Shown here: positions 15,821-27,508 of the stretch, one piece after another
Layout: each line of letters begins with the position of its first letter
Position numbering within the stretch: the first letter of the stretch is position 1
Virus record (IMG/VR): IMGVR_UViG_3300046792_000073
Span: 1-58,733 of that record
Strand: one strand, 5' to 3'
Length of the DNA: 58,733 bases
Origin: a virus
Lineage: Duplodnaviria > Caudoviricetes
Translations under genes and position numbers: made by a program
Notes under the pieces: model-generated
What the model saw: the letters and a program-made list of their open reading frames with translations, nothing else
Told to the model about the DNA's origin: nothing
Databases searched by the model: none

Positions 15821-18800
15821 ATGGCCACGATCGCCCGCGTCATGTACGACGTAGTTGCCAGGGATGGCGCTAGCCGTACGTTCCGGCGCATCGGCGATGA
15901 CGCCACCTTCGCCGAGGGGCGGGTGGCCCGGTTCGGCCGGACGTTCGCCGTCGCCGGCGGCGTGGTAGCTGCGGCTGCTGTCGCCGTCGGCGTCGAGTCG
16001 GTGCGGATGGCGACCACTTTCCAGGCGCAGATGACCCGCATCCAGACCCAGGCCGGCGGGTCCGCGCGGGACGTCAAGGTCCTCACCGGGGCTGTCCTGG
16101 GTTTGTCGTCGAGGCGGGCGCAGCAGTCGCCGCAGATGCTCGCCCAGGCGCTGTACCACCTCAAGTCGGTCGGCATGGACAACGTCCACGCCATGACCGC
16201 GCTGCGGTCCGCGTCGGACCTGGCGGCCGTCGGCGGCGCCAACCTTGAGGACACGACCAACGCCCTGGCGGGGGCGTGGCGGTCAGGGATCAAGGGCGCC
16301 CAGTCGTTCGGGAAGACGGCGGCGACGGTGAACGCCATCATCGGCGCCGGCAACATGACCATGACCGATTTCGTCGGGTCGCTGACCTCGGGCATCCTCC
16401 CGGCCGCGCGCACATTCGGGGTGTCGCTGCGGTCGGTGGGGGCGGCGATGGCCCTGATGACCGACGAGGGCATCCCCGCCGAGGTCGCCGCGACCCGGCT
16501 GCGGATGACCTTGTCGCTGCTCGGCGCCCCGTCGGCCAAGGCGCAGGCGCAACTCAAGGCGATCGGCCTGTCCTCGACGTCGCTGGCGAACGCGATGCGC
16601 TCACCCGGGGGCCTGGTCGCCGCCGTGGGCCTGCTCAAGACCCACCTGGACAACTCGGGCCTGTCGGCGACCAAGGCCGCCCAGTTGATCAGCAACGCGT
16701 TCGGCGGCGGCCGGTCCAGCGCGGCGATCATGACCCTGCTCAATAACTACAGCGTGCTTGAGCGCAAGCAGAATCAGATCAATAACACGATCGGCCGGTA
16801 CGGTGCCGCGGTCGCCGCGCAGCGCAAAACCGCCGGCGCCGAGTTTGAGCGGCTGCGGGCGATCATCGACACGGTCGGGATCAGGATCGGCCTGGCCCTG
16901 CTGCCGCCGGTCACGTCGTTTGTGTCGTGGATCGTGAACAGGGCGATCCCGGCGGTGGGCCGGTTCGGGTCCCGGGTCGGGCAGGTGTTCGACCAGGTGA
17001 TCCCGATCGGCACGATCAAGCGGGACTGGCAGGACGTGCTGCAGTTCCTCGGCTTGTCCAAGCCCAGGCCGGTCAAGCTGGTGACCGGCGACCTGCTGCA
17101 CCTGCCCAAGGCGGCGCCGCTGTTCGCCGGGGATCTGCTGCACCCGCAGCCGTTCCATTTCAACGACGCCAACCTGTTCCACCCGCTGCCCAAGTCGGCC
17201 GGTGCCGGGCTGGCGTCGTCGATCGCTTCGGTGCTGCACGGGCCGGCGGTCGGCAACGCCCTGGGGACGGCACTGGGGGACGCGTTCGCGTCGGTCGCGA
17301 CCCACGCCGCCATGATCACGTCCAAGCTGGTGACCGCGCTCGCCGGCCTGGACTGGACCACGATCGGCAAAACGGTCGGGTCGCAGGCGCTCGGGTTCGG
17401 TATCGGCCTGATCGCCGGGTTCGGCAACGACCTGTTCTCGGTGACCTGGTGGAAAAAGCATTGGTGGGACGCGATCCTCACCGTCCTGACGGTGTCGGCG
17501 GTCGGGAAGTTCGCCGGCCCCCTTGAGCGGATCTTCGCTAAGATCCCGATCCTGCGGTCGTTTACCCCGTTGCTGCGGGGGATCGAGAAGCTGACCGGGC
17601 CGATGAACAAGGCGATCGGGAAGGTCGTCGAGGCGGTCGGTAACGGGCTGATCGACGGGTTCACCAAGACATTCCCCACCGCGGCTAAGTGGCTGACCCG
17701 CGAGGGTGGCCTGCTGACCACCCGCCTCGGCGTGATGGGGATCCAGATGTTCGACCGGTCGCTGTCCGCCGGCCGGGGGATTCTGCGCGGCATCGAGTCC
17801 GGCACGTCGGGGCTGGTGCAGGTGGTCCTCGGGGTGATCCGGCGGATCGTGTCCCCGTTCCGGGGCGCGGCCGGGTGGCTGGTCAGGCCTGGGATGGATG
17901 TGGTCCGGGGGCTGCTCACCGGGATCCGCCGGTTCATGGGCGGCATCGGCACCTGGGTCAAGGGGAACATCGTTGACCCGCTGGTCAACGCGGTCAAGCA
18001 TTTCTTCGGGATCAAGTCGCCGTCCACGGTGATGGCCGGCATCGGCGGCCACCTGATCGGCGGCCTGCTCAAGGGGATGGTCGCCGGGTCGGCCGGGCTG
18101 GTGCATGCGGTGTTCGGGTCGTTCCCGGGGGCGCTGGCACACCTGGTCGACAAGTCGCTGGTGTCGATCGCGTCCCTGCCGGGGCGTGCGCTGCGCGCCC
18201 TGGGCGGCCTGGGGGGGAAGCTCGGGCACCTGCTCGGCGGCCTGTTCGGCGGCGGCGGGGGCACCCCGGGCGGGTCGGGGGTGGCCCGGTGGGGCTCGAC
18301 GGTCCTCAAGGTGCTGGGGATGCTGGGCTTGCCGTCGTCCTACCTGGGGGCGTGGCTGCGCCAGATCGCCACCGAATCCGGTGGCAACCCGAGGGCGATC
18401 AACCTGACCGACTCCAACGCCGCCGCCGGGCATCCGAGCATGGGCGTCCTGCAAACGATCATCTCGACGTTCAACGCCTACGCCGGCCCGTTCCGGGGCC
18501 TGGGCCCGTTCAACGGGCTCGCCGACATCTACGCCGGGATCAACTACGCGACGCACAGGTACGGCCGGCTCGGGCAGTTGGCCGTCATCGGGCACGGTCA
18601 CGGGTACTGGCAGGGCGGCCCGATCACCGAGCCGATCTGGGGGATCGGGCGTTCCGGGCGGTCCTACAGCTTCGGGGAGGGCGGGTTGCAGGAATGGGTG
18701 TCCCGTGGCCGCCCCGGCGGTCACGGTGTCAATGGTGGCTTGACGTCCGGCGGGCCGCTGGTCCACGTCGCGCAGATGGTGGTCCAGGACGCCACCGACG

Positions 18801-18859
18801 CCGACCTGGTCGCGCGCAAGCTCGCGTTCCGCGTCTACGCCGCCGGCCTGGGGTCGTGA
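15821..18859 (+). CDS. Tape measure protein with C-terminal lytic transglycosylase domain
   Basis: 1012 aa, Ala/Gly-rich helical; FGIKSPS; ESGGNPRAINLTDSNA...SMGVLQ SLT-like motif. Confidence 0.95.
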   Translation: MATIARVMYDVVARDGASRTFRRIGDDATFAEGRVARFGRTFAVAGGVVAAAAVAVGVESVRMATTFQAQMTRIQTQAGGSARDVKVLTGAVLGLSSRRAQQSPQMLAQALYHLKSVGMDNVHAMTALRSASDLAAVGGANLEDTTNALAGAWRSGIKGAQSFGKTAATVNAIIGAGNMTMTDFVGSLTSGILPAARTFGVSLRSVGAAMALMTDEGIPAEVAATRLRMTLSLLGAPSAKAQAQLKAIGLSSTSLANAMRSPGGLVAAVGLLKTHLDNSGLSATKAAQLISNAFGGGRSSAAIMTLLNNYSVLERKQNQINNTIGRYGAAVAAQRKTAGAEFERLRAIIDTVGIRIGLALLPPVTSFVSWIVNRAIPAVGRFGSRVGQVFDQVIPIGTIKRDWQDVLQFLGLSKPRPVKLVTGDLLHLPKAAPLFAGDLLHPQPFHFNDANLFHPLPKSAGAGLASSIASVLHGPAVGNALGTALGDAFASVATHAAMITSKLVTALAGLDWTTIGKTVGSQALGFGIGLIAGFGNDLFSVTWWKKHWWDAILTVLTVSAVGKFAGPLERIFAKIPILRSFTPLLRGIEKLTGPMNKAIGKVVEAVGNGLIDGFTKTFPTAAKWLTREGGLLTTRLGVMGIQMFDRSLSAGRGILRGIESGTSGLVQVVLGVIRRIVSPFRGAAGWLVRPGMDVVRGLLTGIRRFMGGIGTWVKGNIVDPLVNAVKHFFGIKSPSTVMAGIGGHLIGGLLKGMVAGSAGLVHAVFGSFPGALAHLVDKSLVSIASLPGRALRALGGLGGKLGHLLGGLFGGGGGTPGGSGVARWGSTVLKVLGMLGLPSSYLGAWLRQIATESGGNPRAINLTDSNAAAGHPSMGVLQTIISTFNAYAGPFRGLGPFNGLADIYAGINYATHRYGRLGQLAVIGHGHGYWQGGPITEPIWGIGRSGRSYSFGEGGLQEWVSRGRPGGHGVNGGLTSGGPLVHVAQMVVQDATDADLVARKLAFRVYAAGLGS

Positions 18860-18863
18860 CGTC

Positions 18864-19748
18864 ATGGCCGTGACGGCGATCACCCTCACCGACCCCGCCT
18901 CAGGGATCAGCGTGCCGATCATGCCCGCCGTGGGTGTGGCCGCGCAGATCCTCGACGTCGCCGCCCCCGCCAGGGCGGTCGCGGTGGACCGGGTCGGGGC
19001 GCACGGGTCGTTCGACACGACAGCCTTTTACGGGCCGGCGGCGGTATCGCTCACCATGCTGCTGTACCCCGACGGGGGCATCACCCCGGAGGCGTTCCTC
19101 GACCAGCTAGGGCAACTGCTCAACCCCGCGTTGCGGCCGGTGCTGGTCGTCACCAATGACGCGTGGGCGCTGCCGAGGCAGATCACGGTCAGGTTCGACT
19201 CGGTCAGTGTCCCGGTGTCGGACCCGACCAACCAGCCGGTGCAGGTCACCTGGACCGGGCCGCGGTCGGTGTGGGAGGACGCGGTCGAGGTCACCGCGAC
19301 GATTGGCGCGTTCATCGCCTCGGCCACCGGCCTGACGTGGGATGTGACCTCGGGTATCACCTGGACATCGGCGGGCGTGTCGTGGCCCGCATCGACGTCG
19401 CCGTCGCCGCAACTGGTCACCAACACCGGCACCCTGGCGTGCGACTGGGTCGGGTTCCTGTACGGGCCGGCGACCGGGCCAAAGATCGCCAACGACACCG
19501 CCGGCGGGGCGCTTGAGTTCGACGATTCCCTGATCCTGGCCCCCGGCGAGTATGTGCTGCTCGACTCGTCAACCCGGACCGCTTACCGCAACGGGGACCT
19601 GACCCAGCCGGTCACCGGCAACCTGACGTTCCCGGCGGTGTGGTGGCTGATGCAGCCGGGGGTCAACAACGTCCGCTACTACCCGTCCGCCGCTGGCGGC
19701 GGGGCGGCCGCGCAACTGGCGTTCCGCCCGGCCCGGCCGGTGTTCTAA
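18864..19748 (+). CDS. Distal tail (Dit)-like protein
   Basis: Follows the tape measure; VTNTG, YGP...P, WWLMQPGVN. Confidence 0.8.
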   Translation: MAVTAITLTDPASGISVPIMPAVGVAAQILDVAAPARAVAVDRVGAHGSFDTTAFYGPAAVSLTMLLYPDGGITPEAFLDQLGQLLNPALRPVLVVTNDAWALPRQITVRFDSVSVPVSDPTNQPVQVTWTGPRSVWEDAVEVTATIGAFIASATGLTWDVTSGITWTSAGVSWPASTSPSPQLVTNTGTLACDWVGFLYGPATGPKIANDTAGGALEFDDSLILAPGEYVLLDSSTRTAYRNGDLTQPVTGNLTFPAVWWLMQPGVNNVRYYPSAAGGGAAAQLAFRPARPVF

Positions 19749-20034: not shown

Positions 20035-21042
20035 ATGACCGCCCACCAGCCGCTCGCCGTCCAGCCGGCCACCGGCGACCCGTCCCTGGTCACCACCGCC
20101 CAGGAGTTCCGCCAGTTCATCTGGACCATGCTCGGCGCGGCCAACTCCTACCCCGGCGCCGAGGGCGTCATGGATGTCGGCATCCCGTCGGCCGGGGCGA
20201 TGACCGGCGATTTCTCGGTCACCCAGCGCGGCGCGGGTGCTAACGGGTCGGTGGACGTGTCCGCCGGCCACGCCCTCACCAACGGCGACGACATTTCCAG
20301 CCAGGGAACCTACGCCCTGTGGAACGACGGGGTGATCAACGTCGCGGTGCCGCTGTCGCCGCCGGCGCAAAGGATTCACCGCCTGGTGCTGCAAGTGCAG
20401 GACAAGCTGTCGCTGGGGACCTGGTCGGGGTACACGTTCGCCCCGGTGCTGCTACAGGACGTCGGGTCGGGCACGCCGGCGCAGCCGAACAGCGCCATCA
20501 CCCTGGCGCTGATCACGGTCAACCCGGCCGACCCGTCGGTGCAGAACGCGGCGATCGCCGACTACCGGCGCGCGGTCGGCCCGGTCGCCGCCTCGACGGC
20601 CACGGCCGAGACCAAGTCGAACACGACCCTGGCCGACTCGGCCAGCCTGCAACTGTGGGGGCTGCGCGACAGTGCCTGGTATGGGTTCGCCGGGTTCCTC
20701 AACTACGACGGCGCCAACCAGAACAGTTCCGGTGACCCGGGCGGCATTCACGTCACCTGGCGCACCCCCGGCCCGTCGAACGTGAAACTGTTTCACACGG
20801 CGATCCGCAACGATTCCAACAACAACGCGTCGGTCGGCGGGGCGGTCAAGGAAACAGACACTTGGAACGGGTGGACCGACGGGGCCGGGGTCAGCATGTC
20901 GGCGCTGCTGGTCGGGGCGATCCAGACGACCAGCACCAAGCCGAACAACTTTGCCGTGCTGCAGTTCTGCCAGAACAACTCCTCAGGCACCAACACCCGG
21001 ATCCTGGCCGGGTCGATGGTGTACGCCTGGCCGATCTCCTGA
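20035..21042 (+). CDS. Minor tail protein
   Basis: GANGSVDVSAG, RIHRLVLQVQD, ITLALITV...IADYR motifs of actinophage minor tail proteins. Confidence 0.8.
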   Translation: MTAHQPLAVQPATGDPSLVTTAQEFRQFIWTMLGAANSYPGAEGVMDVGIPSAGAMTGDFSVTQRGAGANGSVDVSAGHALTNGDDISSQGTYALWNDGVINVAVPLSPPAQRIHRLVLQVQDKLSLGTWSGYTFAPVLLQDVGSGTPAQPNSAITLALITVNPADPSVQNAAIADYRRAVGPVAASTATAETKSNTTLADSASLQLWGLRDSAWYGFAGFLNYDGANQNSSGDPGGIHVTWRTPGPSNVKLFHTAIRNDSNNNASVGGAVKETDTWNGWTDGAGVSMSALLVGAIQTTSTKPNNFAVLQFCQNNSSGTNTRILAGSMVYAWPIS

Positions 21043-21048
21043 CCTCTG

Positions 21049-23625
21049 ATGGCTGCTGACATCCCGGTCTGCTACGCCGGGTCGCACGCGCAGGCGACCG
21101 GCGGGACGACCAACGTCGTCACCGTAGGGTCCGATTTCGCCGGGTCGCCGGCGGCGTTCCCGGTGATCGCCGGGGAGACCGTGATCGTGTGCGGCGGCGC
21201 GGGCACCCACCTGCCGACGGGGATCAACGATTCGCAGGCCAACGGCGGGTACGCGCAGGCCGCCGGCACCGCCACCAGCCCGGCGTCGTGGATCTTCGCC
21301 TCCCCGGCGGTAGCTCACCCGTTGCACGCCGCCGGAACCGGGTTCACCGCCGACACAGTCACGGTGACCTACTCGGGGACCGGCGACGGCAAGCAGGCCG
21401 TCGTCTTGTCCGTTCCCGGGCTCACCGCCACCCCGGCGGACTCGGGGTCGGCGGCGACCGCGTCGGGCAACTCGACCGCCCCGTCGGTCACGTCCGGGGC
21501 GCTCGCGCAGGCCCGCGAGTTCGTCGTCGCCGTGTGCGTGTCGGCGCAGGCCGCCGGCGAGGCGGTGTGGCCGGCGCCGTGGCAGGTGATCGCCAAGGGC
21601 GTCCAGACCGGCGCCGGGGCGTTCTGCTCGGTCGCGGTGCTGCGGAACTACACCGGCACGGCGGCGATCACCGCGAGCCCCACCCTGCCGGGGATCCCGG
21701 GCGCGTGGACCATGAGCATCTGCGGGTTCAAAGGTGCCGCAAGCTCGCTCAAGTCCTACGTCGGCGCGACCGTGTCAACGTCGTCGTTCGCCGACTCGCC
21801 GGGGTCGTGGGGGGCGGCCCTGGAATGGGACGCCGACATGGGCCGGGCCCCGTCGGCGCAGCGGACCCGCGTGTTCTACATCTCCACCGAGGGCCAGTGG
21901 GGGACAACCGCGGCCGATGACCCTCAAGGGATCGCCACGATGGTCGCCGCGCACCCGTCGATGAAGCCGATCTTGTCGATCAAGCCCAAGCGGATGGCGG
22001 TGATCACCCCGTCGGTCGCCACGTCCGAGATCGCCGCCATGTGCGTGTACGCGACGATGCTGCGCAACAACGGGGTCACCGAGTTGCGCTGGTGCCTGTG
22101 GAATGAGATGAACAACGGCGGCGGCACGTCGAGCTTCGGCGACGGCACCGCCAAGGGCACCCAGGCGGGGGACCCGTGGGCGGTGGGCGGCCCGGTGCCG
22201 CCGCCTGCTGGCGGGTGGACCGGGCAGCAGGCCGGCGCCCATTACCGGGCGTACTGCAACCTGTTCGGGCCGGCGCTGCTGCTGACCGGTTACCTGGTCG
22301 CGTACAAGCCGATGATCGCGTCCTACAACGCGGTGCAGTACAACTTTCCCGGCCGGGCGTGGGGCACCGGGGCGCAGGCCAACAACGCCGGCGGCTGCAA
22401 CGAGATCATCCTCGATCTGTACGCGTGGGACCCGCATCAGGACCTGGCGAACAAATGGATCACGGTCACCGACCAGTTGGCCCGGGGGGTGCTGACCAGC
22501 TTCGGCGGCGTCGATTACTCATTCACCCCAGAGGCCGCGCTCGGGTTCGGGGAGATCGGCGTCACCGACGGGCCGAACACCCCCGACGACACCGACCCCG
22601 GGTGGACCGCCGCCCTGTTCAACAACGTGTCGGCGCCGAGCTTCGGCGGGCACGCCCTGCCCGTGCCCGGGGTCACCCAGTTCTTCCTCAACCGGATCGC
22701 CGGCGGGCACCCGTCGGCGCCGATCGTGTGGTTCAGCGAAAAGCCGGCGCCGGCGGGGAACGCGATCGACTCGACCGGGGCGATCAACTCGCGGCAGGAC
22801 ATCGGCGACGCGTGGCGTGCCCTGTACGACACCCTGTCTGTCGATGCGGCCACCACCGGGGTTGCCCCTACGGTCACCACGGCGAGCCTGCCAGCGTGGC
22901 AGGTGGGCGTCCCTGTGTCGTTTCAGATGCAGGCGTCGGGGGGGACCGCGCCGCTGGTGTGGTCCCTGTCCTCCGGTGCGCTGCCGGCCGGCCTGATCTT
23001 GCACGCGTCCGGGCTGATCGACGGCACACCCACGGTCGCCGGCACGACGACCCCGCATTTCCTCGTCACCGACGCGGCGAGCCTGACCGGGGCGGCGACG
23101 CTGACCGCCACCGTCGCCGGGTCGCAGTTGACCGTGCCGGCGCAGCCGCTGCCCGGCGGTGTCGTCGGATCCCCATATGCGGCCCAGTTGGGCGCCACCG
23201 GCGGCACCCCGCCGGACACCTGGGCGGTCCTGTCCGGGGCGCTCCCGGCCGGCCTTTCCCTGTCTTCGGCGGGGCTGATCTCCGGGGTGCCGACGACCCC
23301 GGGGACCGCGTCGTTCACACCGCAGGTGACCGACCACCTGGGCGCGACCGCGTCGGCGCCGTTGCAGATCGTCGTGACCGCTGCGGCGTTCGCGATCACC
23401 ACGGCCGCGCTGCCGCCGGGCATCCTCGGCGGCTCTTACGCCGCCGACCTCGGCACCGCCGGCGGGACGCTGCCGGTGACGAACTGGCAGATCATCTCCG
23501 GGCAACTGCCGCCGGGGCTGGCCCTGGCGATCCCGCCGGCCGGTGACCCGAACATCGGCGACGAGGCCGGGACCGGGATCACCGACGAGGCAGGCACCCA
23601 GATCACCGACGAAAGCGGGCCCTGA
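21049..23625 (+). CDS. Tail receptor-binding protein: GH26-like catalytic domain plus He_PIG Ig repeats (third repeat truncated)
   Basis: WNEMNNG, LDLY, FGEIG clan GH-A-like motifs; SGALPAGL...GLIxGxPT twice; third repeat stops after SGQLPPGLAL. Confidence 0.75.
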   Translation: MAADIPVCYAGSHAQATGGTTNVVTVGSDFAGSPAAFPVIAGETVIVCGGAGTHLPTGINDSQANGGYAQAAGTATSPASWIFASPAVAHPLHAAGTGFTADTVTVTYSGTGDGKQAVVLSVPGLTATPADSGSAATASGNSTAPSVTSGALAQAREFVVAVCVSAQAAGEAVWPAPWQVIAKGVQTGAGAFCSVAVLRNYTGTAAITASPTLPGIPGAWTMSICGFKGAASSLKSYVGATVSTSSFADSPGSWGAALEWDADMGRAPSAQRTRVFYISTEGQWGTTAADDPQGIATMVAAHPSMKPILSIKPKRMAVITPSVATSEIAAMCVYATMLRNNGVTELRWCLWNEMNNGGGTSSFGDGTAKGTQAGDPWAVGGPVPPPAGGWTGQQAGAHYRAYCNLFGPALLLTGYLVAYKPMIASYNAVQYNFPGRAWGTGAQANNAGGCNEIILDLYAWDPHQDLANKWITVTDQLARGVLTSFGGVDYSFTPEAALGFGEIGVTDGPNTPDDTDPGWTAALFNNVSAPSFGGHALPVPGVTQFFLNRIAGGHPSAPIVWFSEKPAPAGNAIDSTGAINSRQDIGDAWRALYDTLSVDAATTGVAPTVTTASLPAWQVGVPVSFQMQASGGTAPLVWSLSSGALPAGLILHASGLIDGTPTVAGTTTPHFLVTDAASLTGAATLTATVAGSQLTVPAQPLPGGVVGSPYAAQLGATGGTPPDTWAVLSGALPAGLSLSSAGLISGVPTTPGTASFTPQVTDHLGATASAPLQIVVTAAAFAITTAALPPGILGGSYAADLGTAGGTLPVTNWQIISGQLPPGLALAIPPAGDPNIGDEAGTGITDEAGTQITDESGP

Positions 23626-23626
23626 C

Positions 23627-24394
23627 ATGACCACCAAATACTCTGCCTATGCCGCCAAGGCCACGCCCACCACAGCGGATAAGGTGCTGATCCTCGACGT
23701 CGCCGACGGGTCGTTCCCGGCCGGGATGGAAAAGCTAGCCACCCTCGCCTCTATCGTCGCGCTCGCGCCGCAACTGGACTCCACCGCCGCCGACATCCAG
23801 CAAGGCGGGGTCCAGGCAGCCGGAAGCTCGGCCCTGGCGGCCCGCGCCGACCACGTCCACCCGCACCCGGCGGCGCAGCCGTCCGACGTGGGGGTGCTGG
23901 CGTGGACCGGCGACCCGGCGGTACTGAATGGCACGACGGCCGTGATGACCGCCGGGAAGCTGTACCTGTCGGCGTTCTGGATCCGCAAGACCGTGACGAT
24001 CGCCAACATGGCCTACTCGATCACCAACACGCCGGCGACACTGACCGCCGGGCAGAACTTCGCCGCGATCTTCAATAGCTCGGGAACGCAGATGGGCGTG
24101 AGCGCCGACCAGTCGTCGATCTGGACCGGCGGCGCCGGCACCTACGACACGGCCCTGGTCTCGTCGTTCAGCGCCACACCGGGGATGTACTGGGCGGCGT
24201 TCCTGGCGAACGGGACCACGACCCCGAACATCCGGGGCACCAACGGCGGTATCAGCCTGATCCAGTTGGGGCAGGCCGCTGCGGTGTCCCGCGCCGGCCT
24301 GTCGGGCACCGGCCTGACCGCGATGCCGGCGTCGTTCACCCCGTCGGCGATCGCGCAAACCTCGGCGATCTTGCACTGTGTGGTGCTGCACTGA
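23627..24394 (+). CDS. Tail fibre-like protein
   Basis: ATG 23627; AGSS..AARADHVHP fibre motif; LAWTGDP...G.YW C-terminal domain. Confidence 0.75.
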   Translation: MTTKYSAYAAKATPTTADKVLILDVADGSFPAGMEKLATLASIVALAPQLDSTAADIQQGGVQAAGSSALAARADHVHPHPAAQPSDVGVLAWTGDPAVLNGTTAVMTAGKLYLSAFWIRKTVTIANMAYSITNTPATLTAGQNFAAIFNSSGTQMGVSADQSSIWTGGAGTYDTALVSSFSATPGMYWAAFLANGTTTPNIRGTNGGISLIQLGQAAAVSRAGLSGTGLTAMPASFTPSAIAQTSAILHCVVLH

Positions 24395-25644
24395 TGCAGA
24401 TCACCGGCGTCCCGACGGCGGCCGGGGTCTACACGTTCACTGTGCAGGCCACCGACTCGGCGTCGCACACGGCGACCGCGACGCTGACCATCACGGTCAC
24501 GACCGTGCCGGCGCCGCCGCCGCCGGCCCGGTGGCAGTTCATCCTCGCGGCCCCGCAACCGGACGGGTCGGACCTGACCGAGCTTGTGTCGTTCGCGACG
24601 CCGCCGCAGTTGACGATGCGCGTGTCCCCAGACCAGACCTCCGATTTCACCTGCGACCTGATCGGGACAGCCCCCGACGCCGCGCAGGTCGCCGAACTGA
24701 CCACCGATGTGCAGGTGATCTACGGGGGGAAGCTTCTGTATATCGGCCGGGTCGGCGCCTGCCAGGACACTGTTGACTCGGGCGGCCACGTCCTGTCGGC
24801 GGCGGCCACCGACTACCGGGGGGTGCTGGGCCGGCGGGCCATCGCCTCGGACGTGCCCGGCGGGACGCTGTCCCCGTCGGGGGTTGACCAGGCGCTGATC
24901 GTGTGGAACCTGATCGCCTACACCCAGGGCCGGGCCGGGGGGCAACTGGGCATCGCCAAAGGCGTCGGCCAGTCCACCGGCAAGACCCGGACCATGACCT
25001 TTACCCTGGGCGATTACATCGCCGACGACATCACCACCGTCGCCCAGTTGGACGGCGGATTCGACTGGCAGGTCACCCCGTATGGGCGGGCCGACCTGCG
25101 CCTCGACATCTTCACCCCGGTCCAGGGCACCGACAACGGGGTCGTGTTCACCCCCGGCGATGGGCGGGTCGTGTCGATCGTGCGGACCACCGACCCCTCG
25201 ACGTTCGGCAACGCGATCTTTGAAACGGGGCAGGCGCCGCCGTCGGGGTCCAAGCCGTCGGTCGCGAGCGTCGAGCAGATCAACCCGGGCGAGCAGCGGT
25301 TCGACAAGGTCATCGGGTCGAACATCACCCTGACCGCGGCGCTCGCCGACGACGCGACCGCCCAATTGGCCCGCGCGCAGGTCCTCGTGCCCGCGTATGT
25401 GATCACCCTCAAGCCGGGTTCGTGGGGCGGCCCGTCGGATGTGTGGATGGGCGACCTCGTCACGGTCGTGATCAACTCCGGGCGCCTGACGGTGAACGAC
25501 CAGCTACGGGTGATGGAACTGGCGTTCACCATCGACGCCAACGGGCAGGAAACCCTCGCCCTGACTGTGGGGATCAAGCTGCTCGACTACAACAAGCAGT
25601 TGCCCAAGATCCTGCGCCGGCTCCGCTACCTTGAGACCCGGTGA
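24394..25644 (+). CDS. Baseplate hub / Tal-like (ReqiPepy6 gp37-like) protein with N-terminal half He_PIG domain
   Basis: Starts ITGVPTAAGVYTFTVQATDS; DYRGVLGRR, GFDW, GDLVTVVI hub-like motifs. Confidence 0.75.
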   Translation: MQITGVPTAAGVYTFTVQATDSASHTATATLTITVTTVPAPPPPARWQFILAAPQPDGSDLTELVSFATPPQLTMRVSPDQTSDFTCDLIGTAPDAAQVAELTTDVQVIYGGKLLYIGRVGACQDTVDSGGHVLSAAATDYRGVLGRRAIASDVPGGTLSPSGVDQALIVWNLIAYTQGRAGGQLGIAKGVGQSTGKTRTMTFTLGDYIADDITTVAQLDGGFDWQVTPYGRADLRLDIFTPVQGTDNGVVFTPGDGRVVSIVRTTDPSTFGNAIFETGQAPPSGSKPSVASVEQINPGEQRFDKVIGSNITLTAALADDATAQLARAQVLVPAYVITLKPGSWGGPSDVWMGDLVTVVINSGRLTVNDQLRVMELAFTIDANGQETLALTVGIKLLDYNKQLPKILRRLRYLETR

Positions 25645-26331: not shown

Positions 26332-26458
26332 CCACCCGGTAATAGGCGCCTGACCTGGGGAAACCCCGAACAGGTCGCGGATGGGTCATTAGCCAGGCCC
26401 GGGGGGTAAGGCGCTTAGCGGCCGTCCTGGCGCGATTCAAGCTATGTTTACCGGGTGG
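26332..26458. ncRNA. Candidate multibranch structured RNA upstream of the endolysin
   Basis: CCACCCGGTAA (26332-26342) pairs with TTACCGGGTGG (26448-26458), enclosing GACCTG/CAGGTC and GCCAGG/CCTGGC stems. Confidence 0.4.
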
Positions 26459-26551
26459 CGATGGTGTGGTCACCGGGCGTGGCAGCCGAACAGATGCCCG
26501 AACGGGCCGAGATCCCCAGCCGGCGCCCCCGGGCGCGGTAGCGTGGCGCGC

Positions 26552-27508
26552 ATGACCATGCCAGCCGTGATGCTCGACCCAGTCCCCACCGCGCTGCTAT
26601 CCCGCTCGACGACCTCGGCGCTGCCCGCCGGCTCGCAAGCCCACGCCCTCGGGTACGGCCTGCATCATGCCCCGTTCGCGGCCGGCCGGGGCGGTGTCCC
26701 CGGCGTGGACTACGCCTGGTCCAAGCCGTCAATCGGCGCCCTTGAGGACGCGGGCGAGGTGTTCGTCGCCCAGTATTTCTCCCCCGACGAGACCAAGGAC
26801 CTGACGCCGGCGCGGGCCGATGCGCTGCAAGCCGCCCGGATCAAGATCGTCGTGATCTACGAGTACGGGGCGCAGGACGTCCTGCGCGGCCGGGCCGGCG
26901 GCCAGCGGGACGCCGAGAACGCCGAGGCGCAGGCCCGCGCCTGCGGCATCGACGGGTGCGTGTTCTACTGGGCGGTTGACTATGACGCACCGCCGGGCGA
27001 CCAGCCGCTGATCGAGGGTTACTCGGACGGGTGGGCCGACGTCGTCGGCGACGACCGGGGCCGCAACGCTTACGGCGGGTACTGGCCGCTGTCCCGGCTC
27101 AAGGCCGCCGGGAAGGCCCGCCGGCTGTGGGGCACGCCGGCGTGGTCGGGGGACAACTGGGCGACCTCGGGGCTGACCCCCGACATCATGCAAGGCGCGA
27201 TGATCACGATCGGCGGGGTGCAGTGCGACCTCGACGCCGCCCTGTCCGCAGACTTCGGCCAGTGGCCCAGGCCGGCGAACCCGGCGCTGACGTGGCAATG
27301 GTGGACCACCAACGGCGACCAGTCGTTCGCCGCGGTCGCCCGGCACACCGGCATGACCGTCGCCCACATCCTGCGGGCGACATGTGTCAAAAACGGCGGT
27401 CACTGGGATCAGGGGACGTTCGACGGGCTCAACTACGACCTGGGCGACCCGGTCGAGGACCCGCACCGGCCGCTCGCCGCCGGCACCCGCCTGTGGGTGC
27501 TCGCGTGA
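26552..27508 (+). CDS. Endolysin: DUF1906 (Rv2525c/GH25-like) hydrolase plus LysM-like C-terminus
   Basis: GVDY, FVAQY, KDLT, IYE, YWAVDYD, AYGG, DLD motifs; DQSFAAVARHTGMTVAHIL...LAAGTRLWV; start could be 26552, 26558 or later. Confidence 0.85.
   Translation: MTMPAVMLDPVPTALLSRSTTSALPAGSQAHALGYGLHHAPFAAGRGGVPGVDYAWSKPSIGALEDAGEVFVAQYFSPDETKDLTPARADALQAARIKIVVIYEYGAQDVLRGRAGGQRDAENAEAQARACGIDGCVFYWAVDYDAPPGDQPLIEGYSDGWADVVGDDRGRNAYGGYWPLSRLKAAGKARRLWGTPAWSGDNWATSGLTPDIMQGAMITIGGVQCDLDAALSADFGQWPRPANPALTWQWWTTNGDQSFAAVARHTGMTVAHILRATCVKNGGHWDQGTFDGLNYDLGDPVEDPHRPLAAGTRLWVLA

Follow-up and report, generated by a model that had tools for sequence, protein, structure and literature searches.

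A tail-tip Ig-like domain divided between two phage genes by an inserted fiber-like gene, and its proposed refolding in trans

Introduction

Phage tail genes are known to undergo fusion, splitting, and exchange at domain borders. In the donor-strand complementation of chaperone–usher pili, an incomplete Ig-like fold is completed by strands of a partner chain, yielding a stable noncovalent joint, whereas programmed translational bypass of the T4 gene 60 type involves a short untranslated gap with matched take-off and landing codons. A phage gene in pieces has been described in Aeromonas phage Aeh1, where nrdA is reported to be split by mobE (Crona et al. 2010, PMC3045599), whole orthologs are present elsewhere, and the pieces reportedly cooperate with no RNA or protein splicing and no DNA rearrangement, the tails being essential for activity. 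A 2026 podophage paper on a "split nozzle" (PMC13730344) concerns a different protein, and its abstract mentions no split within a domain. Among the papers listed by our literature search, we found no account of a split Ig-like or He_PIG domain, or of strand complementation in trans, in phage tails.

The window analyzed here is the whole 58,733-nucleotide stretch of DNA, a metagenome-derived viral contig of a soil phage. We describe a tail-tip locus in which an Ig-like He_PIG domain is divided between 2 genes with a third gene in between, compare it with fused, split, and interrupted relatives, and weigh the readings of this arrangement.

Results

A He_PIG domain divided between g858 and g416

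The tail module of the window runs in the order tape measure protein, Dit-like protein (g294), g335, g858, g255, g416, and endolysin, a hub-type placement downstream of the tape measure and Dit-like genes (Table 1); by tblastn, g294 is matched in 7 of the 9 related loci. The 3 genes of interest are contiguous: g858 stops at a TGA (23623–23625), the ATG of g255 follows one base downstream (23627), and the TGA that ends g255 (24392–24394) overlaps the g416 ATG (24394) as TGATG, so that g255 is tightly coupled to both neighbors. The list of open reading frames (ORFs) also holds a longer, GTG-started form of g255 (23543..24394).

Table 1. Positions of the tail-module features in the window
Feature	Position	Strand	Evidence or description
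Tape measure protein	15821..18859	+	Pfam PhageMin_Tail, E 5.7e-19; PHROG tape measure families, best E 2.7e-65
Dit-like distal tail protein g294	18864..19748	+	phrog_5577, E 2.6e-13; phrog_33 Dit, E 4.6e-7
Minor tail protein g335	20035..21042	+	tblastn match in 6/9 related loci
g858, 858 aa	21049..23625	+	N-terminal domain, glycoside-hydrolase-like middle, 2 whole He_PIG, half third, acidic tail
He_PIG domain 1, whole, g858 aa 608–691	22870..23121	+	Pfam positions 1–94/96, E 3.8e-12; family HMM 2–85 (seed member)
He_PIG domain 2, whole, g858 aa 694–778	23128..23382	+	Pfam positions 5–91/96, E 4.5e-12; family HMM 1–85 (seed member); model pLDDT 76–92
He_PIG domain 3, first half, g858 aa 782–826	23392..23526	+	Ends after LPPGLAL; BLASTP to repeat 2; family HMM 2–49
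Acidic tail, 32 aa, g858 aa 827–858	23527..23622	+	About 2.6 copies of the 8-aa unit I-G/T-D-E-A/S-G-T/P-x
Direct repeat, left copy, CAGATCACCG	23599..23608	+	Codons Q-I-T of g858
g255, fiber-like, 255 aa	23627..24394	+	N-terminal anchor ~aa 1–85; C-terminal beta-sandwich ~aa 86–250
g416, Tal-like hub	24394..25644	+	Second half of He_PIG domain 3 at N-terminus; phrog_1885 minor tail, E 8.9e-20
Direct repeat, right copy, CAGATCACCG	24397..24406	+	Codons Q-I-T of g416
He_PIG domain 3, second half, g416 aa 2–36	24397..24501	+	Pfam He_PIG 60–96/96; family HMM 50–84
Proline-rich linker, g416 aa 37–44	24502..24525	+	Poorly conserved, 12–50% identical
Hub core, g416 aa 45–416	24526..25641	+	Many stand-alone hubs of ~360–375 aa start at query residue 44–47

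Comparisons by Pfam, BLASTP, and a family hidden Markov model (HMM) confirm that the third He_PIG of the window is split between the g858 C-terminus and the g416 N-terminus, and it is whole in neither chain. Against He_PIG (PF05345, cut-off 24 bits), g858 scores 70.3 bits over 2 stretches and is thus a member, as is g416 through aa 2–36, whose 25.1 bits cover only profile positions 60–96 of 96. In isolation, the N-terminal 45 aa of g416 reach 31.4 bits (E 2.7e-7); as evidence on the opposite side, Pfam finds nothing at E ≤ 10 in the C-terminal 89 aa of g858. By BLASTP, g858 aa 788–827 correspond to the first half of repeat 2 (22/40 identical, 55%, E 1e-9) and g416 aa 3–33 to its second half (16/31 identical, E 5e-6); the g416 N-terminus also aligns with repeat 1 (24/47 identical, E 2e-6). 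The family HMM has 85 positions and was built from 7 intact repeats, 2 of them g858's own, which therefore match it by construction. The third repeat of g858 occupies positions 2–49 (iE 2.3e-11), with the tail trailing weakly to 71, and g416 aa 2–36 occupy positions 50–84 (iE 3.7e-11), so the 2 pieces abut at one loop. The sequence-only reading had described this division, as well as the 255-aa fiber gene that fills the gap and the coupled ATG of the hub, and all of this is borne out.

The acidic tail that follows the first half is underlain by a 24-nt tandem repeat (2.2 copies, 23559–23612). It is 50% identical to the tail of the closest g858 relative (P0015) and has no counterpart in a fused relative (P0135; see below). 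The HMM alignment, at low posterior probability, weakly hints that the tail may be a decayed copy of the missing He_PIG half.

An enzyme-like arm and a hub

For the middle domain of g858, glycoside hydrolase structures of families GH26 and GH53 are the leads in the Atlas (TM 0.55–0.61; feature leads 0.91–0.93). These are GH-A-type TIM barrels, whereas our own model has pLDDT < 50 across most of the region and a mean of 48.7 over the g858 monomer (low confidence). No PDB sequence match to g858 was obtained with either the single sequence or a profile, and the middle domain has no Pfam match. In an alignment of 4 sequences, residues N352, E353, and E502 do not vary; N352-E353 may be the acid/base N-E motif of clan GH-A, and E502 its second catalytic Glu. 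Judging from the structure leads and the residue alignment, g858 is plausibly a sugar-cutting enzyme.

The match of g416 to phrog_1885 extends over aa 71–391. Pfam Sipho_Gp37 (PF14594) scores 17 bits, below its cut-off of 26.2, and PDB sequences give chance-level matches only. One relative (P0009) carries PF06605.

Fused, split, and interrupted relatives

P0135 is a single 1186-aa protein colinear with g858 and g416: g858 aa 31–826 align with its residues 27–771 (39% identical, E 1e-109) and g416 aa 3–416 with residues 777–1186 (51% identical, E 1e-126), only 5 residues separating the 2 matches. In the hub tree, it is the sister of the window hub clade (support 87). Loci L013/L014 (1713 aa), L015 (1325 aa), and L004 (992 aa) likewise encode a single ORF, in which the last He_PIG ahead of the hub is intact. 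The gene order Dit, g335, long protein is common to L005, L012, L013, and L015, where tblastn places the g335 homolog immediately 5' of the long protein. As for g255, no match was detected in any of the 9 related loci at E ≤ 1e-4, a count that covers these 9 loci and leaves the contigs of P0015/P0004, P0002, P0003, P0141, and P0156 outside; among the g255 relatives listed, none lies on a 9323-nt contig. Because P0135 is colinear, other one-ORF relatives exist, and g255 is absent from 9/9 loci, the sequence comparisons strongly support the splitting of an ancestral fused tail-tip gene by a g255 cassette that entered a domain loop. The insertion is further backed by the 2 copies of the 10-bp direct repeat CAGATCACCG that flank the insert in frame (Table 1) and by the viral loci that carry the g255 C-domain in other company (see below). 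The sequence-only reading had offered such a cassette as one of 2 options and had suggested looking for fused relatives; the option gains strong support and the relatives exist. Its insert of ~860 bp has to be revised, since 798 bp lie between the flanking repeats and the gene measures 768 nt.

Other relatives share the split. P0015, the sole full-length g858 relative found with the same ending, is 68% identical to g858 over the full length and ends in the same half-domain and acidic tail; by part, identity is 81% in the N-terminal domain, 68% in the intact repeats, 61% in the half-domain, and 50% in the tail. Five hubs (P0002, P0003, P0004, P0141, and P0156) begin with MVQITGTP and the same half-domain, which is 66–71% identical to that of the window; where hub bodies have dropped to 39–40% identity, as in P0141 and P0156, the half-domain stands at 69–71%. 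The M(V)QITG start is kept in 6/6 hubs with a half-domain N-terminus, and relatives at 58–68% identity share the truncated end and the hub start of the window. The split of He_PIG domain 3 is thus old, given that the 68%-identical P0015 ends alike and 5 hubs start with the same half-domain. The half-domain hubs form 2 separate clades, a single clade being rejected (p-AU 5.9e-7), and the high identity of the hub half-domain may derive in part from module exchange rather than from purifying selection.

In 2 further proteins, P0146 and P0147, the He_PIG halves are 338 and ~450 residues apart within one chain, with the break at HMM positions 49/50. In L012 and L005, the same domain is split after family HMM position 70, before the last strand, which stays on the hub as an orphan; the TAG stop and the next ATG are separated by 9 or 7 nt, so the frame is not kept between the 2 loci. 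These large inserts in cis and the second split indicate that the mid-domain loop of He_PIG is tolerant of separation.

Searches elsewhere returned little. The phage record collection gave no match to DNA (blastn) or protein (tblastn) queries, and single-protein scans of viral contigs with g416 and g858 yielded no relatives. Degenerate DNA patterns for the MVQITGTP hub start and the acidic tail hit 0 stretches in viral contigs. The half-domain hub alignment matched 31 loci among genome contigs, all of them in the He_PIG part only (query residues 2–113), and hence no prophage relative was found there.

The inserted gene

The product of g255 matches phrog_14726 (tail fiber, E 4.2e-12), and its Foldseek matches include the central fiber gp20 of Douge (E 5.5e-4) and the tail tip of Bxb1; the predicted structure has a low mean pLDDT of 59.7, although its C-domain reaches 68–90. 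Homologs are 56–63% identical, indicating a conserved gene. The C-domain was found in 38 viral loci, 0/38 of which had a match to g416 or g858. Base composition gives no sign that g255 is foreign (GC3 0.91 versus 0.92–0.93 in its neighbors). No endonuclease match was found in Pfam, where a sub-threshold turret-protein domain is the sole match. A homing endonuclease was considered and rejected in view of the tail-fiber PHROGs, the fiber-tip fold, and the lack of an endonuclease match.

Refolding in trans or relics of fission

The reading that we regard as probable is that of a fusion split by insertion, whose halves would refold in trans and whose inserted gene would supply an extra fiber. The ancestor made one tail-tip protein comprising an N-terminal domain, a glycanase-like domain, 3 He_PIG domains, and a C-terminal hub. 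A fiber gene of ~0.8 kb that brought its own stop and start entered the long mid-loop of the third He_PIG, producing 3 coupled genes: the first now ends in the leading half of the Ig domain, followed by the acidic repeat tail, and the third begins with the second half, the proline linker, and the hub. The sequences thus show the split, the fused relatives, the insertion, and the conservation of both halves. In the virion, both halves would fold in trans into one Ig sandwich, tying the enzyme arm to the hub noncovalently, in the place and number of the fused ancestor, and g255 would add a further receptor-binding fiber, a placement that we infer. The sequence-only reading had set the inserted cassette and refolding in trans side by side as alternatives, yet they are compatible, as the second does not exclude the first. 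Its further idea, that the acidic tail recruits the inserted fiber, draws no support from our results.

Refolding in trans is likely, considering the conserved halves, the inserts in cis at the same loop, and complex prediction. The complex of g858 aa 690–858 with g416 aa 1–50 scored 0.56 (runs 0.59, 0.56, and 0.56), compared with 0.01 for the best of 3 controls. This is a "weak support" score: the support mark is reached by 58/80 solved complexes and 2/110 mismatched pairs, scores ≤ 0.60 take in 7/80 solved complexes and both mismatches that passed, and a split domain can pass because it resembles whole Ig domains. Agreement of contacts between runs is at least 94%, with partner pLDDT of at least 78, and the prediction returned no list of contacts. 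Modeling of the 2 termini, as the sequence-only reading had suggested, thus separates the pair from controls but leaves it in the weak band, and the support for refolding from conservation and inserts in cis is indirect.

We consider it rather unlikely that the half-domains are relics of a real fission, with g858 held through its N-terminal domain or acidic tail, or forming no stable part of the virion. The weak band of the complex score fits such relics, as does the monomer model, in which the orphan half of g858 is poorly ordered (pLDDT 55–66, with little secondary structure, versus 76–92 for the whole repeats) and the tail is disordered (pLDDT ≤ 34). The N-terminal domain is, moreover, the best conserved part of g858 (81% to P0015) and recurs N-terminally in other hub-linked proteins, e.g., P0135 and P0010. 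Against relics, the He_PIG core pattern survives in the 2 halves at 61% and 66–71% identity, near the 68% of the whole repeats, over a divergence that takes hub bodies down to 39–40%; the start motif is retained in all 6 hubs, and another lineage has divided this domain too and likewise retains the orphan last strand on its hub.

Rejoining of the halves into one chain, by excision between the CAGATCACCG copies, RNA splicing, or ribosome bypassing, is very improbable, in agreement with the sequence-only reading, which had ranked bypassing and splicing lower. The 10-bp CAGATCACCG occurs in 3 copies in the window versus 0.11 expected, and its left and right copies lie in frame 798 nt apart, a multiple of 3, so that loss of the stretch between them would give back an uninterrupted He_PIG frame. 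Against rejoining, g416 has its own coupled ATG, with the start kept in 5 relatives; the stretch to be skipped is a conserved gene; the frame across the L012/L005 split is not conserved; and no deletion joint was seen in the contigs of 4 runs, although contigs are blind to rare variants. In 23000–25000, no Rfam family reached the gathering score, and none of 3 sub-threshold matches was an intron. Three specific candidates were rejected: group I and II introns, for which the Rfam E-value scan of 23000–25000 gave no intron family; programmed bypass, for which matched sequence is present, but the 798-nt gap holds a conserved gene and the downstream start is conserved; and an intein, given the stop codon, the separate start, and no splicing domain match.

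That misassembly placed the fiber gene between the halves of one gene is practically negligible even for a metagenome-derived contig, because relatives share both the truncated end and the hub start, Logan contigs of runs X1, X5, and X15 span 22800–25200 with 0 differences, and a contig of X24 spans 22800–24604, both junctions included; 3 of these 4 spanning runs may be the source of the window DNA, and X24 is not so marked. Reproduction of the arrangement in 4 independent run assemblies speaks against the misassembly that the sequence-only reading had proposed to exclude. In total, 24 runs contain 97–100% of the sampled window words, and no RNA run is among the sequencing runs listed for these words.

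Discussion

If true, a split inside an Ig domain that has long been kept, with both halves conserved, would represent natural protein-fragment complementation serving as an assembly joint. It would show a route by which a phage can gain a fiber gene inside a structural gene while function is kept, and it would caution annotators against discarding "truncated" tail genes. Should the joint work, the half-domains (~45 and ~35 residues) would be a candidate natural noncovalent tag pair. For testing, fused, cis-interrupted, and 2 split forms are available within this one family.

More speculatively, and in our estimation improbably, the mid-domain loop of He_PIG could be a plug-and-socket joint for actinophage tail tips, exchanged as a module among unrelated hubs. 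A hub with an N-terminal second half would be the socket, on which arms ending in a first half would dock by fragment complementation; exchange as a module would explain a 69–74% identical half-domain on 2 hub clades that are 38–41% identical. The acidic repeats would then be a placeholder strand: their 8-aa I-T-D-E units echo the I-T-G strand supplied by the hub, and they would cover the open half-sandwich until displaced by the hub, as in the donor-strand exchange of pili.

Returning to the insertion-split fusion that we favor, its closest described counterpart is nrdA/mobE of Aeh1. As reported for that system, a phage gene has become 2 cistrons through an inserted gene, whole orthologs exist, and a new tail is present at the junction; the window pieces are likewise colinear with whole orthologs, as expected of genes in pieces. 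Unlike in the Aeh1 case, where a homing endonuclease gene interrupts an enzyme active site, the window has a fiber-like structural gene inserted into a small Ig-like virion domain, the new tail is on the upstream piece alone, and the joint working of the pieces is a prediction. Chaperone–usher pili differ in other respects: the partner in the window would provide about half of the sandwich, complementation is predicted, there is neither chaperone nor usher, and no sequence relation to pilins exists. The L012/L005 lineage, in which the hub gives only the last strand, is nearer to donor-strand complementation than the window is.

Within the family, the fused relatives (P0135, P0137, P0138, L013, L015, and L004) share the domain order and the Dit/g335 neighbors and are colinear at 39–51% identity, but their last He_PIG is whole within a single ORF, and they lack both the acidic tail and g255. 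P0146 and P0147 break at the same family HMM position (49/50) as the window and keep both halves, their insert being an in-frame domain within one chain rather than a gene with its own stop and start.

Two tail genes share one Ig-like domain

The split lies in the siphophage tail module of this 58,733-base contig from an uncultured virus and involves g858, g255 and g416, tail proteins named by their length in residues, with g416 as the Tal-like hub. A single base separates the g858 stop from the ATG of g255, and the g255 stop and the g416 ATG overlap (TGATG). The Rv2525c-like domain of the endolysin would fit an actinobacterial host. The end of g858 reads GGG CCC TGA C ATG (23617-23629); were the ribosome to slip by +1 on the CCC at the stop, translation would go on as D-M-T-T-K, fusing g858 with all of g255. 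Stop motifs of the CCC TGA C kind resemble shift-prone stop contexts in Escherichia coli. The open frame of g255 extends back to 23543, for which the high GC content is by itself a sufficient explanation.

Features of the tail module and of a second split in related loci
Feature	Position	Remarks
Tape measure	15821-18859	
Dit-like protein	18864-19748	
90-aa ORF		between the Dit-like gene and g335
g335, minor tail protein	20035-21042	
g858	21049-23625	stop TGA at 23623-23625
g255	23627-24394	
g416	24394-25644	
100-aa ORF		3' of g416, followed by the endolysin
Endolysin	26444-27508	Rv2525c-like glycoside-hydrolase-like domain (Pfam E 1.5e-13); phrog_13480 endolysin (E 1.3e-15)
Second split of last He_PIG	L012 10049-10078; L005 8271-8298	related loci

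Against Pfam, g858 matched the Ig-like domain He_PIG (PF05345) in 2 stretches (70.3 bits), and g416 matched it at residues 2-36, covering only profile positions 60-96 of 96; the score was 25.1 bits with the whole protein and 31.4 bits with its first 45 residues. When searched alone against Pfam, the C-terminal 89 residues of g858 gave no match. In BLASTP comparisons with the two whole g858 repeats, residues 788-827 of g858 aligned to repeat 2 in its first half (55% identity, E 1e-9) and g416 residues 3-33 in its second (52%, E 5e-6). On an HMM of 85 positions built from seven whole He_PIG repeats of this tail-protein family, the third repeat breaks at position 49/50, with positions 2-49 in g858 and 50-84 in g416 residues 2-36. 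In the g858 model, this site falls in the loop that joins strands 736-738 and 743-746 of He_PIG 2 (pLDDT 76-92), leaving roughly three or four leading strands in the first piece and the last four in the second.

The half-domain of g858 is followed by an acidic tail of 32 residues (23527-23622), which carries a 24-nt tandem repeat in 2.2 copies. This tail aligns weakly to family-HMM positions 50-71, with I-T-D resembling I-T-G and Q-I-T-D-E-S resembling Q-V-T-D, and the C-terminal ends of g858, its relative P0015 and the long proteins of loci L012 and L005 all fall at positions 70-74. The acidic tail may have arisen as a duplicate of the missing half that then decayed, or the likeness could be due to chance in low-complexity sequence.

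The middle domain of g858 (about residues 250-600; 21790-22860) had no match among Pfam and PDB sequences and fell into no curated family. Atlas leads, which are leads only, were TIM-barrel glycoside hydrolases of families GH26, GH53 and GH5 (TM 0.55-0.61, feature scores 0.91-0.93), and a four-sequence alignment shows no variation at N352, E353 and E502. The domain is likely a TIM-barrel glycoside hydrolase, and "the enzyme" is a reasonable name for g858, a putative enzyme.

A fibre gene inserted into a fused ancestor

The relative P0135 (1186 residues), sister of the clade of the window in the tree of hub bodies (support 87), aligns at residues 27-771 to g858 31-826 (39%, E 1e-109) and at residues 777-1186 to g416 3-416 (51%, E 1e-126); the two alignments lie only five residues apart, and the third He_PIG is whole. 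Long proteins encoded by single ORFs, in which whole He_PIG domains are directly followed by the hub, were also found in loci taken from viral and metagenome contigs, namely L013 and L014 (1713 residues), L015 (1325) and L004 (992). A Dit-like gene and g335 lie upstream of the long gene in L005, L012, L013 and L015. A match to g255 was sought in nine related loci and found in none of them.

The C-terminal domain of g255 is present in 38 other viral loci (29-44% identity), none of which has a match to g416 or g858. In the relative P0287, the N-terminal ~85 residues of g255 are almost unchanged and the C-terminal domain is different, a pattern consistent with a fibre made of an anchor and a swappable tip. 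Considering also its matches to PHROG tail-fibre families and the similarity of its fold, in a model of mean pLDDT 59.7, to the central fibre of Douge and the tail tip of Bxb1, g255 appears to be a modular fibre gene that was inserted into the He_PIG loop. Copies of CAGATCACCG at 23599 and 24397 border the insert, in frame with each other at a distance of 798 nt. Three copies occur in the window versus 0.11 expected, and the left of the two flanking copies belongs to the g858 tandem repeat. Since several whole He_PIG domains of relatives (L004, L005) have a long loop at the break site, ending in P-A-G-x-I-T-G, the cassette probably landed in an already extended loop. The base composition of g255 is that of its neighbor genes, indicating that the insertion is not recent.

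We consider gene fission by insertion of a fibre gene very probable. The sequence-only reading had described the third He_PIG as halved between two tail genes, which the Pfam, BLASTP and family-HMM results bear out, and had offered an ancestral fusion cut by a cassette as one origin, which is upheld by the colinearity of P0135, the one-ORF relatives and the lack of g255 in the nine loci; the fused-gene relatives that it proposed to seek exist (P0135, L013/L014, L015 and L004).

Conservation and recurrence of the break

P0015 and g858 share 68% identity along the whole protein, and P0015 has the same ending: the half-domain (61% identical) and then an acidic tail in which the repeat pattern recurs (50%). 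P0014 (848 aa), a variant of g858 at 99% identity with a 10-residue deletion around aa 111-120, lies on another contig, of 8018 nt. The hub relative P0004 begins with MVQITGTP and the second half-domain; it shares its source with P0015, and the same longest contig (9323 nt) is listed for both, from which we infer that the two are on one contig.

P0002, P0003, P0141 and P0156 begin like P0004, and in all five relatives the hub half-domain is 66-71% identical to that of the window, whereas identity falls to 39-40% in the hub bodies of P0141 and P0156. This excess may reflect selection on the half-domain or exchange of the joint, the proposed meeting of the two halves, as a module. In a tree of 31 hub bodies, half-domain hubs form two well-supported clades, and a tree forcing them into one is rejected (p-AU 5.9e-7); across the two clades the half-domains are 57-74% identical. 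The distribution points to module exchange of the joint or to repeated splitting.

In P0146 and P0147, from the same hub clade as P0141 and P0156, one He_PIG is broken at HMM position 49/50, as in the window, within a single chain: the halves lie at aa 245-287 and 626-659 of P0146 (insert of 338 residues) and at aa 306-356 and 805-853 of P0147 (about 450 residues). The insert looks like an enzyme domain, and a long stretch of chain can evidently separate the two halves of a He_PIG. In L012 and L005, the long gene ends after HMM position 70 (…TVTDSS, then TAG) and the hub gene begins 9 nt or 7 nt, respectively, past the TAG, with no gene between; the hub start, MPATAS…(L/E)(D/E)IDV, is the last He_PIG strand only. 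The frames differ between the two loci, so that each has two cistrons rather than read-through, and their closest hub relative, L015, is fused, so that this split is a separate, independent fission.

Proposed folding of the halves in trans

The comparative series around the window split makes trans complementation likely. The predicted complex of g858 residues 690-858 with g416 residues 1-50 (three runs, three controls) scored 0.56 (runs 0.59, 0.56 and 0.56; verdict "weak support") versus 0.01 for the best control, and scores of 0.60 or less included only 7 of the 80 solved complexes and both of the mismatched pairs that passed; the mark itself was reached by 58 of the 80 and by 2 of 110 mismatched pairs. 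The partner pLDDT was at least 78 and contact agreement between runs at least 94%, the contacts themselves not being returned. Halves of a common fold may pass through likeness to whole Ig domains. In the g858 monomer model, a shallow one, the whole repeats are better ordered than the orphan half, which would fit a half in need of a partner. The complex prediction agrees with the earlier proposal that the halves refold in trans, within the weak band, and trans folding itself is our inference. Taken as one statement, fission by insertion with the halves folding together in trans is moderately favored.

That the half-domains are relics, with g858 attached by other means, we consider less likely. 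Excision, splicing or bypass is an improbable way of rejoining the halves: no Rfam intron family matched within 23000-25000, g416 has its own coupled and conserved start, the stretch to be skipped is a conserved gene, and the deletion joint occurs in no contig examined. Misassembly is excluded for practical purposes, as independent assemblies of four runs give the same arrangement with 0 differences, 24 soil or rhizosphere runs, most of which may be sources of this DNA, hold 97-100% of sampled words, and divergent relatives have both ends too. The low rank originally given to bypass or splicing was justified.

Comparison with known systems

Donor-strand complementation is known from pili; the proposed trans joint would resemble it by analogy, the form in L012 and L005 being the closer parallel. 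Searches of open-access papers and preprints found no account of phage tail genes that divide an Ig domain between them. The window holds a real, old and well-documented intra-domain gene fission caused by insertion of a fibre gene, and the comparative series around it renders trans complementation directly testable. The nearest precedent found for a phage gene split by an inserted gene is nrdA of phage Aeh1, which is interrupted by mobE; its two pieces are reported to be active without any splicing or rearrangement, and the tails born at the junction to be essential for activity (PMC3045599). In the window, by contrast, where the case is known from sequence, the insert is a structural gene and the target an Ig-like domain of a virion protein.
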